From positions 8,203 to 72,202 of the forward strand of contig JAISUG010000058.1 of assembly GCA_031272185.1 (NCBI GenBank): a DNA stretch of 64,000 nt, written 5' to 3'. Of the stretch, positions 4,888-57,668 are shown piece by piece. A model generated the notes under the pieces. The model saw only the letters and a list, made by a program, of their open reading frames with translations. It searched no databases and had not been told where the DNA came from. The stretch is from Lachnospiraceae bacterium. Its GTDB lineage: Bacteria; Bacillota; Clostridia; Lachnospirales; Lachnospiraceae. Position numbers and translations under genes: made by a program. Numbering within the stretch: the first letter of the stretch is position 1; every line of letters starts with the position of its first letter.

Positions 4888-5077
4888 CAGAGGGCAGTTG
4901 GTAGGGGAAGGATCCGGGGTGTAGTGAGCAGGGTGAAGGGGACAGACCCAGGGAGCAGGGAACAGACCCGGGGAGCAGGGCACAGAGGAAAGCCCCAGGT
5001 TGCAAGGGATAAGGAATAGTGAATGGAGAGCCGCTGGGAAATGAATGGTACGGCGGATGGATCTTCGGGAGGGTAAC

Positions 5078-5983
5078 ATGGAATTGGACGCAAGCATTAT
5101 GCAGAAGGCGGAGGTGCTCATCGAGGCGCTGCCTTACATACAGCGGTTCAACCGCAAGATCATAGTGGTGAAGTACGGCGGGAGCGCCATGGTGGACGAG
5201 GAGTTGAAGCGGCATGTCATCCAGGACGTGGTGCTCCTTAAACTGGTGGGGTTCAAGCCCATCATCGTCCACGGCGGGGGCAAGGAGATCAGCCGCTGGG
5301 TGGAAAAATCCGGGATGGAGCCGCATTTTGTGAACGGGCTGCGGGTCACAGACGCCGCCACCATGGAAATCGTGGAGATGGTGCTGAACAAAGTGAACAA
5401 GAGCCTGGTGCAGCTGGTGCACGAGCTGGGTGTGCGCGCAGTGGGCATCTCCGGGAAGGACGGCAGGCTTCTGAAATGCGAGCGGCGGCTCTCCGGAGGC
5501 GAGGACATAGGGTTCGTGGGCAACGTGACACAGGTGGACCCAAAGATCATATATGATTTGCTGGAAAAGGATTTCCTGCCCATCATCTGCCCTGTAGGGT
5601 TCGACGACCATTTCGAGAGCTACAATGTAAATGCGGACGATGCCGCCTGCGCATTGGCCAAGGCATTGAAAGCCGAAAAGCTGGCGTTTTTGACGGACGT
5701 GGAGGGTGTGTACAGGGACTTTGCAGACAAGGACTCATTGGTGAGCGAGCTGCCCCTGTCCGACGCCAGGGCGCTGGTGGCCCAGGGGAACCTGGGCGGG
5801 GGGATGCTGCCGAAACTGCAAAGCTGCATCGACGCCATCGAGGAGGGGGTGTCCAGGGTGCATATCATGGACGGGCGCATCGCCCACTGCCTGCTCCTGG
5901 AGATATTTACCAACAAAGGCATCGGGACGGCGATTTTCCGGGATGGCGAGGCGCGGTATTACTGGGTGCACGAGGGCAAGTAA
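5078..5983 (+). CDS. argB: acetylglutamate kinase
   Basis: [11 protein letters not shown] amino-acid-kinase motif. ATG at 5078 is preceded by GGGAGGG. Confidence 0.93.
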
Positions 5984-6176
5984 AACCAGTGCGATAAAGC
6001 CAAGATGGTACGGTAAAGCCAAGACGGCACGGGGAAGCGTAGGCGTGCGGGGAAGCCAAGACGCATGGGAACGCCAAGACGGCACGGTAAAGCCAAGACG
6101 GCACGGTAAAGCGTAGGCGTGCGGGGAAGCCAAGACGCGTGGGAACGCCAAGACGGCACGGGGAAGCGGGAACCTG
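5981..6176. repeat. tandem repeat array between argB and argD
   Basis: Units built on TAAAGCCAAGACGGCACGG and GCGTAGGCGTGCGGGGAAGCCAAGACGC recur with a higher-order period of about 75 nt. The first unit (TAAAACCAG...) starts at the argB stop codon. Confidence 0.85.
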
Positions 6177-6228
6177 TGTGGAGTAGCAAAGGGCATCAAT
6201 GGGAAGCAAATGGAAGCGAGGTCGAGAT

Positions 6229-54088: not shown

Positions 54089-54117
54089 TTGACAGGGGGG
54101 TGCTTTTGTGTTATAGT
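54089..54117 (+). promoter_or_regulatory. candidate sigma-A promoter for clpB
   Basis: TTGACA (54089-54094), 17 nt spacer, TATAGT (54112-54117). Confidence 0.65.
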
Positions 54118-54181
54118 GTGAATGTGTTATAGTTAGAATAGAACAGATAAAACACAATATCATCCGTTGAGGAGGGATTGC

Positions 54182-56779
54182 ATGAATATCAACAAGTTCA
54201 CACAAAAGTCCATGGAGGCGGTGAAGACCTGTGAGAAGGTGGCGATGGAGTACGGCAACCAGCAGATCGAGCAGGCGCACCTGCTATACAGCCTGCTGAC
54301 CATCGAGGACAGCCTCATCGCCAAACTGGCGGAAAAGATGGGGGCCGACCCCGGGATGCTGGCCCAGGATGCGGCAAACGCCATCGAGAAGCTGCCCAAG
54401 GTGAGCGGCGGCAGCATGTACATCAGCAACGACCTGAACAAAGTGCTCATAAACGCCGAGGACGAGGCGAAGGCCATGGGGGACGAGTATGTCTCCGTGG
54501 AACACCTCTTCCTGGCGCTCATCAAGTATGCGGACAAATCCATGAAGGAGCTCCTGCGCACATACGGCATCCAGCGGGAGGGGTTCTTGCAGGCGTTGTC
54601 CACGGTGCGGGGGAACCAGCGGGTGGTCAGCGACAACCCGGAGGCCACCTACGACACATTGGAAAAATATGGCCAGGACCTGGTGGAACGGGCCAAAGAG
54701 CAGAAACTGGACCCGGTCATCGGGCGGGATGCGGAGATCCGCAACGTGGTGCGCATCCTCTCCCGCAAGACAAAAAACAACCCGGTGCTCATCGGCGAGC
54801 CGGGCGTGGGCAAGACCGCCGTGGTGGAAGGGCTGGCCCAGCGCATCGTGAGGGGGGACGTGCCCGAGGGGCTCAAGGACAAAAAACTCTTCGCCCTGGA
54901 CATGGGTTCCCTGGTGGCGGGCGCGAAGTACCGGGGGGAGTTCGAGGAACGCCTCAAAGCGGTGCTGGAGGAGGTGAAAAAGAGCGACGGGCAGATCATC
55001 CTGTTCATCGACGAGCTGCACACCATCGTGGGGGCTGGGAAAGCCGAGGGGAGCATGGATGCGGGCAATATGCTCAAACCCATGCTGGCCAGGGGCGAGC
55101 TCCACTGCATCGGCGCCACCACATTGGACGAATACAGGAAATATGTGGACAAAGACCCGGCGCTGGAGCGGCGCTTCCAGCCGGTGATGGTGGACGAGCC
55201 CACCGTGGAGGACACCATTTCCATCCTCCGGGGGCTCAAAGAACGCTACGAGGTGTTCCACGGGGTGAAGATCACCGACTCCGCACTGGTGTCGGCGGCC
55301 ACATTGTCCGACCGGTACATTTCGGAGCGTTTCCTGCCGGACAAGGCCATCGACCTGGTGGACGAGGCGTGCGCCATGATCAAGACGGAGCTGGACTCCA
55401 TGCCGGCGGAACTGGATGAGCTGGCCAGGAAGATCATGCAGATGGAGATCGAGGAGGCGGCCCTGAAAAAGGAGACCGACCACTTAAGCACCGAGCGGCT
55501 GGAAACCCTGCAAAAGGAGCTGGCGGGGCAGAGGGACGATTTCCAGGAAAAGAAGGCCAAGTGGGAGAGCGAGAAAACCAGCGTGGAGAAACTCTCCTCC
55601 CTGCGGGAATCCATCGAGGAAGTGAACCGGGAAATCACCCTGGCCCAGCAAAACTATGACTTGAACAAAGCTGCGGAGCTCCAGTACGGCAAGCTGCCGG
55701 AGCTCCAGAAGCAGCTGGCGGCGGAGGAGGAGCGCATCAAGAGCCAGGATTTGAGCCTGGTCCGCGAGAGCGTAACCGAGGAGGAGATCGCCAAGATCAT
55801 CTCCCGCTGGACGGGCATCCCCGTGGCGAAACTCTCGGAGAGCGAGCGCAGCAAGACGCTGCACCTGGACGAGGTGCTGCACAAACGGGTCATCGGCCAG
55901 GACGAGGGCGTGGAGCTGGTGACGGAGGCCATCATCCGCTCCAAGGCGGGGATCAAGGACCCCACGAAACCCATTGGGTCCTTCCTGTTTTTGGGGCCCA
56001 CCGGCGTGGGCAAGACGGAACTGGCCAAGGCGCTGGCGGAGAGCCTCTTCGACGACGAGTCCAACATGGTGCGCATCGACATGAGCGAATACATGGAGAA
56101 ACACTCGGTGTCCCGCCTCATCGGGGCGCCCCCCGGGTACGTGGGCTACGACGAGGGCGGGCAGCTCACGGAGGCGGTGCGGCGCAAGCCTTACAGCGTG
56201 GTGCTGTTCGACGAGGTGGAAAAGGCGCACCCGGACGTGTTCCACGTGCTGCTCCAGGTGCTGGACGACGGGCGCATCACGGACTCCACCGGGAAGACCG
56301 TGGATTTCAAGAACACCATCCTGATCATGACCTCCAACATCGGCTCCTCCTACCTGCTGGAGGGGATCGATGAAAAGGGGGAGATCGACGACGGTGCCAA
56401 GGAGTCGGTGATGGCGGAGCTAAGGGGGCATTTCCGCCCCGAGTTCCTCAACCGCCTGGACGAGATCATCCTGTTCAAACCATTGACCCAGGAGAACATC
56501 ACCCGGATCGTGGACCTGCTGGTGGCGGACGTGAACAAACGCCTGGCGGACAAGGACCTGTCACTGGAGCTCACCGACGAGGCGAAGGCGTTCGTGGTGG
56601 ACAATGCCTACGACCCGGTGTATGGCGCCCGCCCGCTGAAGCGCTACCTCCAGAAACATGTGGAGACGCTGGCGGCGAAGATCATCCTCCAGGGAGAGCT
56701 CCACGAAAACGACGCCATCGTGCTGGACCTGGACGAGGCGGGGGGGAAGCTGATCGCGTATACCGAGCCTAGGTCATGA
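54182..56779 (+). CDS. clpB: ATP-dependent chaperone ClpB
   Basis: Clp N-domain, two AAA modules ([16 protein letters not shown]), a long coiled-coil middle domain and [22 protein letters not shown] before the ATG at 54182. Confidence 0.96.
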
Positions 56780-57668
56780 CTGACCCGGTCATGACTGACC
56801 CGGTCATGAATGTCTCGCCCCGGGCGTGGATTGGCACGATGCGGTCTTTGTAGGGGGCGGCGGCCGGCAGCGCTTTCAGCCGGTCTATGATGGCGAGGTC
56901 ATCCCACATGTGCATGGGGAACACGGTTTTTGCGCCCACGGTGCGCATGAAGTCGTCGATGCCCAGGTAGAAGTTGTCTTCCAGCCTGGGGTCCAGTGGC
57001 AGGAAAGCCGCGTCCGCGCCGCCGTTTGGTACGGGGGCCGTCGCCCTCCCGGCCGGGGAGACCTGGGGCGGGAAGCCTGCGTCCGTGCCGCCGCTTGGTA
57101 CGGGGGGAATGTCCAGCGGGCGGTCCTTTTCCGAAATACTGCGGTGGAAACTCATGACATCTTGGGCGATCAGCCCCAGTTCATGGTGGTAGTCTGTGGT
57201 CATCCGGCGCAGCCAGTCCTCCGGCTCGCCCTCCCAGTACCAGTGGTTGAGGTCGCCGGCATGGAAAATGAGTTGGTGGGATACGGCGATCAGGAAAGCG
57301 ACGCCCTCGTCGGTGGAGCGGTATGTCTTGACGGTCATCCCATTGATTTCGAGGGTTTGCCGGGGTTTGACAAATGTGGTCAGTTCTTTGCATTCCGGCG
57401 GGACCCTCCGTGGGGGTATGTCGTCGGAGAGGATGAAAAACACGCCGGACGGGGGGGATGGTTGGGGCGCTGCATGTGGCGCCGCTTGCCGCGGCGCCAA
57501 TCCGAAGATCTTCTGGGAAAAATGGTCCCCGTGGACGTGGCTGGCGAACACGTACAGTGTCTTGCCGCCATCAAATGCGGGCAGCTGCCCCTCGAACCAG
57601 TCGAAGAGCAGATATCGGTCGGCCAGTTCCACCAAAAAGCCGCTGTGGTGCAGGTATGTGACCTTCAT
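56769..57668 (-). CDS. MBL-fold metallo-hydrolase
   Basis: [11 protein letters not shown] and HVHGDH (HxHxDH) motifs. Low-complexity insertions. The C-terminus [13 protein letters not shown] is encoded by a 15-nt repeat and overlaps the clpB 3' end by 11 nt. Confidence 0.8.

Follow-up and report, generated by a model that had tools for sequence, protein, structure and literature searches.

Bacterial minisatellites and VNTR loci originate from slipped-strand mispairing and unequal recombination. Prokaryotic intergenic DNA is enriched in tandem repeats (PMC12418385). The arrays in the 64-kb stretch of one uncultured gut-type Clostridia genome analysed here (the window) resemble such loci: they are head-to-tail direct repeats of 7–80 nt whose copies have diverged and show higher-order structure, they lie mainly between genes, and those inside genes are in frame. 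They differ in that the non-coding arrays are about 15 times denser than in comparable genomes, many spacers are filled edge to edge, and the long units prefer a length of about 70 nt. Supply and colleagues reportedly discovered mycobacterial interspersed repetitive units (MIRUs), in 1997, in the spacer of a two-component operon; the MIRU ORFs are said to overlap the stop and start codons of the adjoining genes. MIRUs are direct tandem repeats of 40–100 bp, mainly intergenic, which follow the orientation of the adjacent gene and contain small ORFs (PMC5056196). The MIRU-VNTR geometry is close to that of the thrC, potC and response regulator/kinase cases described below, but MIRUs are one dispersed family at 41 loci, whereas the units here are locus-specific and most of their periods are not multiples of 3. 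REP/BIME elements are also intergenic and often lie directly downstream of stop codons within operons; however, they are dispersed and palindromic, while the loci here have no sequence in common and excess secondary structure is lacking in 15 of 16 units. In neo-CRISPR loci, as at some loci here, locus-specific 'repeats' of ~36 nt flank an unrelated insert of ~35 nt, with a repeat at both ends; in contrast, the window shows neither cas genes nor a canonical CRISPR array, its multi-copy arrays repeat one and the same insert, some inserts measure 10–15 nt, and a density this high would have no precedent. Tandem (backup) stop codons likewise supply further stops after the real one and are effective only in frame and near it, whereas the repeated stop is out of frame in 8 of 13 arrays here.

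Inventory of the arrays

TRF (score of at least 50) reports 22 non-coding arrays in the 64 kb, or 0.344 per kb, against 0.023 per kb in Clostridia control loci totalling 1.4 Mb (1.41 Mb). The density is thus about 15 times that of comparable genomes and far above chance expectation, and 16 of the 36 spacers of at least 40 nt contain an array. No Rfam family was found for the arrays, and unit sequences are unrelated between loci, which agrees with the original prediction of local duplications as opposed to a dispersed REP/MITE family. GC content is 61.7% in arrays and 51.5% in the remaining non-coding DNA.

At all ten loci where repeats anchored on a stop codon had been proposed, a tandem repeat of the proposed period was found beside the stop, but the claimed two to seven copies shrink to 1.4–1.9 at several loci, and at two the stop is reached solely through a degenerate first copy. 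Features are on the plus strand unless the minus strand is indicated. The argB array (5996–6167; stop 5981–5983) comprises about nine 19-nt units with 37/74-nt higher-order structure, the 74-nt block being present 2.2 times; clean copies start 13–15 nt past the stop, which is itself covered only by a degenerate 'zeroth' copy. Behind the C11 peptidase gene (7654–7748, minus strand; stop 7737–7739), 7.3 copies of a 13/26-nt unit begin 6–9 nt before the stop, the first copy containing the last two to three codons plus the TAA. The ATPase array (26469–26564; stop 26470–26472; 18 nt, 5.3 copies) begins at the TGA, and those of clpB (56772–56809; TGA 56777–56779; 15 nt, 2.5 copies) and potC (17728–17840; stop 17733–17735; 57 nt, 1.8–1.9 copies) begin 5 nt and 1–5 nt before the stop, respectively. 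Clean copies at the transglutaminase-like gene (30426–30511, minus strand; stop 30520–30522; 19/38 nt, 4.5 copies) begin 9 nt after the stop, and the 103-nt spacer is filled up to the next start (~30416). The response regulator repeat (32633–32765; stop 32669–32671; 80 nt, ~1.5 copies) is a junction duplication that includes the last 33 coding nucleotides: copy 1 is the regulator end, in which stop and start overlap as ATGA, copy 2 a degenerate version of that end bearing the true kinase start (32748), and spacer length minus period equals −4, the ancestral ATGA overlap. The remaining three share a layout in which a segment X alternates with a segment Y. In rpiB (10682–10860, minus strand; stop 10820–10822; 71 nt, 2.5 copies; X-Y-X-Y-X), X consists of the final ~37–38 coding nucleotides, and the third X stops 9 nt short of the C11 gene ATG (10673). 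The thrC array (42953–43124; TGA 42955–42957; 69 nt, 2.5 copies), X(34)-Y(35)-X-Y-X, starts 2 nt before the stop, and the racemase 3' array (49873–49979; TGA 49874–49876; 70–71 nt, 1.5 copies), X(36)-Y(35)-X, starts 1 nt before it and lies upstream of a terminator-like hairpin (50043–50058).

Further arrays show that stop anchoring holds for only part of the spacers, as those at 4929, 44373, 45474 and 46375 lie away from stops. The argJ-argB spacer array (4929–4986; 20 nt, 2.9 copies) is 44 nt past the argJ stop and not anchored on it; a 32-nt hairpin-containing unit (44373–44442; 2.2 copies) occupies the 5' leader of an amino-acid ABC operon between the promoter (44303–44332) and the start (44519); the array between the SBP and permease genes (45474–45619; 48 nt, 3.0 copies) leaves 79 nt to the preceding stop and 23 nt to the following start; and nested 9/18/21/39-nt repeats fill the permease-ABC ATPase spacer (46375–46585), ending ~8 nt before the ABC start (~46591). 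Arrays at 17924, 34390, 46508, 48597–48777 and 54107 adjoin or overlap start codons or promoters. Among them, the potD-upstream array (17924–17976; 26 nt, two copies) is anchored on the start/Shine-Dalgarno side, its end lying 9 nt ahead of the potD start codon (17985), the DAHP synthase array (34390–34498; 73-nt period, X(36)-Y(37)-X) lies directly upstream of or overlaps the start region, and the M20 peptidase-racemase array (48597–48777; 72 nt, 2.5 copies, X(38)-Y(34)-X-Y-X) runs from 10 nt after the stop to 8 nt before the racemase ATG (48785). Near stops, the HTH-cupin regulator array (14670–14777; 70/71-nt period, X(36–37)-Y(33–34)-X) begins 13–22 nt after the stop at 14657–14659, and the NUDIX gene array (37520–37574, minus strand; 14/17-nt units) 4–8 nt after that at 37576–37578. 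The glycerate kinase array (35550–35597, minus strand; 18 nt, 2.6–4 copies) begins in the last codons (stop 35580–35582), fills the 39-nt convergent spacer and touches the DAHP synthase stop (35538–35540). A 49-nt duplication at the potB/potC junction (16863–16933), just upstream of the potC start (16953), comprises the last seven potB codons, the TAA and a Shine-Dalgarno-like GAAAG. The dtd 5' leader carries a 7-nt unit (CGAGATA) 19 times with 28/35-nt higher-order structure (40309–40444), downstream of a promoter-like site and without association with a stop, and the long molybdopterin oxidoreductase leader (50438–50744) holds three arrays (32 nt, three copies; 9 nt, three to four; 14 nt, 3.3). 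Coding examples are an in-frame 69-nt X-Y-X repeat in an MBOAT gene (24334–24432) and 13 in-frame 12-nt units (GESQ/GGPQ...) in a xanthine-dehydrogenase-family gene (62985–63140).

A period of 69–73 nt recurs at eight loci (rpiB, HTH regulator, MBOAT, DAHP synthase, thrC, M20, racemase and 57010) compared with three in the 1.41 Mb of controls. Their common layout is X(~36)-Y(~35)-X, with X of 34–38 nt and Y of 33–37 nt at the six best-defined loci, and Y seemingly newly inserted. Neither this period preference nor the X-Y-X layout with its half-integer copies is predicted by a general excess of duplication, nor does such an excess explain why the arrays are GC-rich.

Placement, reading frame and ancestral spacers

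The claim that array boundaries coincide with stop codons stands in so far as the start of seven arrays falls between −6 and +4 nt of a stop where uniform placement predicts 2.2, a roughly 3-fold excess (P = 0.003, for a range picked post hoc, with the data already seen). However, five arrays end 8–10 nt before a start codon against 1.2 expected, in a range also chosen after seeing the data, and non-coding arrays in the control Clostridia (1.4 Mb) cluster likewise at stops and starts. Arrays occupy whole spacers between any two constrained features; in six spacers they reach from one edge to the other, and one of the six is the convergent, stop-to-stop spacer at 35541–35579. The data therefore do not support the stop codon as the specific anchor of a new element class, since Shine-Dalgarno sites and starts are adjoined just as sharply, and ordinary duplication with a selection filter fits better than a new stop-codon-specific element. 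Among six long stop-overlapping arrays, those of thrC, potC and racemase have a left edge 1–5 nt from the stop and a unit without coding remnant; random breakpoints would give such edges in about 1.6% of cases, which speaks against the reading by duplication and selection.

Repeats are filtered by selection for intact genes. Within coding sequence the period is divisible by 3 in 10 of 10 arrays (P = 1.7e-5), compared with 9 of 24 non-coding arrays. At the regulator/kinase and potB/potC junctions, remnants of the duplicated gene ends are present, and both duplications score above all 2000 shuffles (0/2000 each).

The arrays are a derived state, absent from relatives with the same operons. In the syntenic relative L082, which is almost without arrays, spacers of 114, 15, 130 and 31 nt correspond to 244, ~256, 49 and 195 nt in the window, the 15-nt spacer being permease-ABC ATPase and the 31-nt one M20 peptidase-racemase. 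Each of the five operon proteins has its C-terminus at the same residue in both. The thrC-fba spacer measures 285 nt in the window and 143 nt in the relative L085, an excess due to two extra 69-nt units, and ThrC ends at the same residue as in PDB 8g1y. In MBOAT homologues, one X-like segment stands alone, without a Y.

Origin of the arrays

The arrays probably reflect an excess, specific to this lineage, of local duplications or insertions that are retained only where genes stay intact. The lineage would gain short local duplications or insertions (units of 7–80 nt) at an unusually high rate, likely through slippage during replication, unequal recombination between short repeats and some process that inserts DNA and duplicates its target, and purifying selection would purge each event that damages a gene. 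Survivors, presumably neutral, would be arrays that keep the frame within tolerant loops of proteins, arrays located in untranslated leaders, in 3' UTRs or between cistrons, and duplications spanning a gene end, given that duplicated last codons plus stop would leave the upstream gene intact and a duplicated stop/start junction would leave both genes intact. Because ancestral spacers were short, surviving arrays would start at or just inside a stop and reach the Shine-Dalgarno site or start; limited by gene integrity, they would thus make the stop codon a boundary set by selection and not a target.

An alternative, which we consider unlikely, is that the ~71-nt repeats are insertion footprints in which a target of ~36 nt (X) was duplicated around ~35 nt of unrelated DNA (Y), the geometry of off-target Cas1-Cas2 spacer integration ('neo-CRISPR'), with X-X recombination giving the 2.5-copy arrays; stop codons would then be found at arrays because, where genes are densely packed, targets that survive mostly extend across a gene end. 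Eight independent loci at 69–73 nt against three in controls and the narrow X and Y sizes suit this idea, as do copy numbers of 1.4–1.5 or 2.2–2.5, by which arrays begin and end with X. Y has a coding-like GC content (0.65–0.68) and looks non-ancestral from the MBOAT homologues, and the regulator/kinase ATGA overlap and the 31-nt L082 and 143-nt L085 spacers fit ancestors with X only. Off-target integration spawning new arrays has a precedent in E. coli and is hinted at for two further species (Nivala et al., 2018, cited in bioRxiv 10.1101/148544, PMC7054753). Against this, the window contains no visible cas gene or CRISPR array, all three 2.5-copy arrays repeat a near-identical Y (~90%) and therefore hold no second independent spacer, Y has no match in the window or in 2.3 Gb of phage genomes, and sizes are off at potB (Y ~15), potC (Y ~10) and the regulator/kinase junction (period 80). 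X/Y borders are uncertain by several nucleotides at some loci, a load of ~8 events per 64 kb would be without precedent, and the short-unit arrays of the same genome require another process regardless. It is also quite improbable that duplications are initiated at stop codons by a mutational process coupled to the termination of translation or transcription, for instance through a ribosome-uncoupled RNA polymerase that backtracks or forms R-loops past the stop and causes replication template switching. The ~3-fold enrichment at stops, the thrC, racemase, ATPase and potC units that begin 0–5 nt from the stop without coding remnant, and the location of most arrays in transcribed leaders, 3' UTRs or intercistronic DNA would accord with it, but array ends are equally sharp 8–10 nt ahead of start codons, arrays occur in 5' leaders or at promoters (17924, 40309, 44373, 50438–50744, 54107), junction duplications begin 21–38 nt inside genes, the same kind of array appears in coding regions wherever the frame is kept, and control genomes show similar gene-end clustering. 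Nothing in the data requires such a process.

Selection of the arrays for a function, as backup stops, stabilising or terminating RNA hairpins, or small-ORF translational coupling as proposed for MIRUs, is very unlikely. The stop does recur in each unit of stop-anchored arrays, small ORFs of 61 and 39 codons, opened by GTGA overlaps at the thrC and potC stops, run through the arrays, and the unit at 44405–44436 forms a good hairpin (z = −2.1). However, the suggested read-through guards fail on frame, as the period is divisible by 3 and the stop repeated in frame in only 5 of 13 stop-proximal arrays, the chance rate; nor is the suggested selection for spacer RNA structure borne out, since folding of the other 15 of 16 units does not surpass that of shuffles (z −0.8 to +1.0). 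Moreover, the small ORFs fall short of the next start codon, copies diverge freely, and relatives keep the same operons without the arrays. Hardly credible, finally, is an assembly or sequencing artefact. The source is a metagenome-assembled genome, short-read assemblers may mishandle repeats, and Logan contig L001 breaks within the rpiB array, a break to be expected if the repeat is real and contains an identical stretch of 45 nt. Yet copies differ by point changes (70–95% matches) and coding arrays are all in frame. Assembly stutter had rightly been thought unlikely: Logan contig L086 (run SRR14710912), from the same organism but an independent assembler, matches the window base for base over 6.5 kb (40520–47061, 100% identity), spanning five arrays.

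Density and position of tandem repeats at gene ends

The window derives from a contig of 74.9 kb that belongs to a metagenome-assembled genome carrying the NCBI label 'Lachnospiraceae bacterium'. The organism stands apart in sequence space, its racemase being 66% identical to the closest homologue and its ThrC 55–57% identical to the closest ThrC. Pfam annotation of the window agrees with the gene names of the original prediction and includes arginine biosynthesis genes, a C11 peptidase gene with rpiB, the potABCD transporter, a two-component pair, thrC-fba, an amino-acid ABC operon with M20 peptidase and racemase, and clpB. 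A purine riboswitch at 60819–60930 is the sole Rfam match in the window, and no tRNA genes were found in it. The GC content of 60.3% (GC3 0.80) compares with 49–52% in the closest syntenic relatives (L082, L083 and L085 compared), and the lineage seems, judging from base composition, to have undergone a strong GC shift from about 50% to 60% overall.

Tandem Repeats Finder (TRF) and a lag scan, with copies read in register, recovered repeats of the predicted periods at all ten of the sites originally listed. They consist of head-to-tail direct copies and fit the minisatellite or VNTR type, which has units of 7–100 nt. At a TRF score of at least 50, the window holds 22 non-coding and 8 coding arrays (local tandem repeats); the non-coding density of 0.344 per kb is 15-fold that of 1.4 Mb of control Clostridia loci obtained through a genome-collection scan with the C11 peptidase (0.023 per kb). 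Such arrays occupy 16 of the 36 spacers of at least 40 nt, and 30% of the non-coding DNA is made up of arrays. Assembly stutter is ruled out, as had been suspected, because point changes distinguish the copies, every coding array keeps the reading frame, and a 6.5-kb Logan contig (L086, run SRR14710912) that spans five arrays is identical to positions 40520–47061. Both Logan contigs of this organism (L001 and L086) match the window at 100% identity, only one strain being present in the collections.

The repeat begins at the stop codon itself in the case of the ATPase gene (period 18 nt), 1 nt before it at the racemase gene (71 nt), 2 nt before it at thrC (69 nt), 1–5 nt at potC (57 nt), 5 nt at clpB (15 nt) and 6–9 nt at the C11 peptidase gene (13/26 nt), while the repeats at rpiB (71 nt) and the response regulator gene (80 nt) hold the last ~38 and ~33 coding nt, respectively. 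At argB (19 nt, higher order 37/74) and the transglutaminase gene (19/38 nt), the repeat begins 9–15 nt after the stop and only a degenerate first copy lies over it. Not all repeats have the 2–7 copies ascribed to them, several having just 1.4–1.9. Further stop-overlapping repeats, beyond those originally listed, were found at potB (16863–16933), a glycerate kinase gene (35550–35597) and a NUDIX gene (37520–37574).

The proposed anchoring on stop codons holds only in part, since arrays are anchored at gene starts too. Under a null model that placed each array uniformly in its own spacer, with an overlap of at most one period with either gene end, 2.2 arrays were expected to begin within −6 to +4 nt of a stop (an interval chosen post hoc), and 7 do so (P = 0.003). 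On the start side, where 1.2 were expected, 5 arrays have their end 8–10 nt ahead of a start codon, just past the Shine-Dalgarno position (P = 0.005). Among the control genomes, non-coding arrays lie at gene ends too, by 7 of 25 offsets measured on the stop side and 8 of 30 on the start side. Six spacers of the window are filled between constrained features (rpiB to C11, transglutaminase to the next gene, M20 to racemase, permease to ABC, regulator to kinase, and the 39-nt spacer in which the stops of DAHP synthase and glycerate kinase face each other), and arrays also lie in 5′ leaders and on promoters (17924, 40309, 44373, 50438–50744 and 54107). We conclude that the stop codon acts chiefly as a selective boundary and is special only in part. 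A duplication across it is the sole gene-overlapping kind that leaves the protein unchanged. The long units at thrC, potC and the racemase gene have left edges 1–5 nt from the stop without a coding remnant, an outcome that random breakpoints could produce but are unlikely to. Coding-sequence remnants were looked for in the thrC, potC, racemase and M20 units and none were found, and the similarity of the 30 nt after the rpiB stop to the 5′ end of the C11 gene, considered as such a remnant, is not significant.

Apparent recent gain of spacer and coding sequence

Bacterial genomes are usually viewed as shedding non-functional DNA; the genome sampled here appears to gain it, spacers of 15–31 nt in relatives corresponding to 195–256 nt in the window. 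The relative L082 has the same SBP-permease-ABC-M20-racemase operon, with proteins of 63–85% amino-acid identity that end at the same residue in all five cases, and its spacers measure 114, 15, 130 and 31 nt where those of the window measure 244, ~256, 49 and 195 nt, the L082 contig being practically free of arrays. In L085, a relative syntenic at thrC-fba, the spacer between these genes is 143 nt against 285 nt, a difference of about two 69-nt units. The regulator/kinase spacer of 76 nt, less its 80-nt period, gives −4, the value of an ATGA stop/start overlap; copy 1 of this junction keeps the regulator end and copy 2 the kinase start, and their similarity beats 2000 of 2000 shuffles, as does that of the duplication at the potB/potC junction. 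The 80-nt junction duplication illustrates how overlapping or tightly coupled genes may become separated. These comparisons are evidence that the arrays are probably recent additions to short ancestral spacers.

Inside genes, the ten arrays have periods of 12, 15, 18, 18, 21, 24, 33, 63, 69 and 69 nt, all divisible by three (10/10, P = 1.7e-5); 9 of 24 non-coding arrays have such a period. The in-frame coding arrays are evidence for a general duplication process filtered by selection. They encode G/A/S/P-rich linkers, among them a GESQ-like tetrapeptide repeated 13 times inside a cofactor-binding domain of the xanthine-dehydrogenase-family protein. G/A/P-rich inserts in housekeeping enzymes are further signs of gain: ThrC has three such insertions of 36–43 residues relative to PDB 8g1y, although its C-terminus falls at exactly the same residue, and the MBOAT protein is ~250 residues longer than its homologues (~508 residues). 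GC-rich, G/A/P/S-rich low-complexity insertions were observed in the housekeeping proteins encoded by thrC (41113–42957), the MBOAT gene (22403–24664), the xanthine-dehydrogenase-family gene (60904–63906), argJ (3460–4887) and aroC (11468–12724).

The repeats are real and remarkably dense, and no new element class is needed for them. The best classification for them is as locus-specific minisatellite or junction duplications, in a lineage where local duplication or insertion is unusually frequent, with purifying selection shaping the result. If the pattern is genome-wide, it would offer a natural case of duplication/insertion bias and selection jointly setting gene spacing. One feature left unexplained by duplication plus selection is the GC-richness of the arrays (61.7% GC, the remaining non-coding DNA having 51.5%).

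Alternative repeat classes and the origin of the ~71-nt loci

A dispersed family of the MIRU, REP/BIME or MITE type is ruled out, as the original prediction already stated for REP/MITE, since the units of 24 loci share no common sequence and all-against-all blastn-short comparison of them returned only chance-level matches of 9–14 nt. The palindromic stem-loop of REP/BIME is likewise missing from 15 of 16 units, which fold no better than dinucleotide shuffles (z −0.8 to +1.0), and on these folding scores and the Rfam search the suggested selection for spacer RNA structure is rejected, together with a terminator or known RNA family; a terminator-like hairpin after the racemase gene sits downstream of the racemase array. 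The idea of reiterated backup stops is argued against because only 5 of 13 arrays repeat the stop in frame. MIRU-like translational coupling, for which units should be multiples of 3 nt and an ORF should link the upstream stop to the downstream start, is not supported: only 5 of 13 stop-proximal arrays have a period divisible by three, and the array ORFs at thrC and potC stop well short of the next start. Diversity-generating retroelements are rejected on repeat size and for lack of a reverse transcriptase. They have VR/TR pairs of ~100–150 nt at the gene 3′ end that differ at adenines, with a reverse transcriptase nearby; the repeats compared here are 28–47 nt, the affected genes are housekeeping genes and reverse transcriptase is absent from Pfam scans of the window.

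A length-quantised group comprises eight independent loci with a period of 69–73 nt (10682–10860, 14670–14777, 24334–24432, 34390–34498, 42953–43124, 48597–48777, 49873–49979 and 57010–57106), against 3 in 1.41 Mb of controls, a clustering with P ~2e-8 against a flat 45–200 nt distribution; one 80-nt repeat and one 74-nt higher-order block are near in size but outside the eight. Half-integer copy numbers give these loci an X-Y-X or X-Y-X-Y-X layout, in which the duplicated segment X is 34–38 nt and the intervening segment Y 33–37 nt in the six best-defined loci, with fuzzy boundaries; potB, potC and the regulator/kinase junction deviate. MBOAT homologues have a single X-like segment and no Y, and the ancestral spacer lengths given by L082, L085 and the ATGA overlap are consistent with X only. 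From these comparisons, Y seems to be new sequence and not ancestral spacer. The possibility that X and Y diverged from a single half-length unit was also considered; at thrC a weak 13 of 29 positions match by eye, and the racemase repeat shows no such likeness (5/35). The size quantisation near 71 nt and the X-Y-X arrangement merit study across the whole genome, and raise the question of whether a length-quantised (~71 nt) insertion process exists in bacteria.

A CRISPR array in the ordinary sense, with at least three near-identical repeats around differing spacers and either cas genes alongside or the repeat present elsewhere, is rejected, since Y1 and Y2 are ~90% identical in the 2.5-copy loci and X is different at every locus. 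A Cas1-Cas2 integrase produces an insert of ~35 nt with a 36-nt target duplication on both sides. 'Neo-CRISPR' loci arising from off-target integration have been reported (Nivala et al., 2018, as described in bioRxiv 10.1101/148544 and PMC7054753), and the six best-defined loci may resemble them, with ~36-nt duplications around ~35-nt inserts that are absent from homologues or relatives. It is conceivable, though improbable, that the 69–73 nt repeats are marks left when the organism's own CRISPR adaptation machinery, or another integrase with a 36-nt stagger, integrated spacers off target on a massive scale, and that they survive only where the target spans a gene end or tolerant loop. This reading is speculative because Pfam annotation found no cas gene in the window and no CRISPR array is visible there, the same Y is repeated within multi-copy loci, the potB and potC inserts are just 10–15 nt, and a protospacer search with the Y inserts matched nothing in the window itself or in phage genomes totalling 2.3 Gb. 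Were it true, a CRISPR adaptation module would act as a genome-wide insertional mutagen reshaping intergenic spacers and protein loops.

Start codons, spurious ORFs and other loci

The arrays are a hazard for annotation, yielding spurious ORFs and wrong start codons. The TTG 'start' of the longest thrC ORF belongs to a near-consensus promoter (TTGACA-17-TAAAAT, 41032–41060), of which it is the −35 hexamer; translation really begins at the ATG at 41113, and public gene calls for ThrC disagree (641, 639 and 614 residues). A 61-codon ORF (42954–43139) opens at a GTG that overlaps the thrC stop (GTGA), crosses the 69-nt array and is called as a gene in L086; almost certainly, this ORF exists only because the repeat is in frame. 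In L085, thrC itself contains a perfect in-frame duplication (4426–4761; 168 nt × 2.0, 100% identity) that covers the conserved PLP-binding region. This duplication is either very recent or an artefact of how that contig was assembled. The purine riboswitch aptamer (RF00167, 40.9 bits) precedes the xanthine-dehydrogenase-family gene, which probably starts at the ATG at 61015 and not at the TTG at 60904, because the aptamer occupies 60819–60930.

In the dtd leader (40309–40444), the heptamer CGAGATA is repeated 19 times with a 28/35-nt higher order, directly downstream of a promoter-like site, and may reflect either an array of protein-binding sites or simple slippage. A doubtful 299-codon ORF on the minus strand (56769–57668) converges on clpB with an 11-nt overlap of the clpB stop; it has a weak metallo-beta-lactamase-fold match over its first 142 residues only, a proline-rich tail with a 69-nt in-frame repeat and an uncertain 3′ end. 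The C11 (clostripain-family) peptidase of 978 residues (7737–10673) has its best relatives, at up to 56% identity, in unrelated rumen and gut MAGs. In a genome collection that excludes the window's species, these are spread over Clostridia, Erysipelotrichaceae and Treponema MAGs, which suggests that the gene is horizontally mobile.
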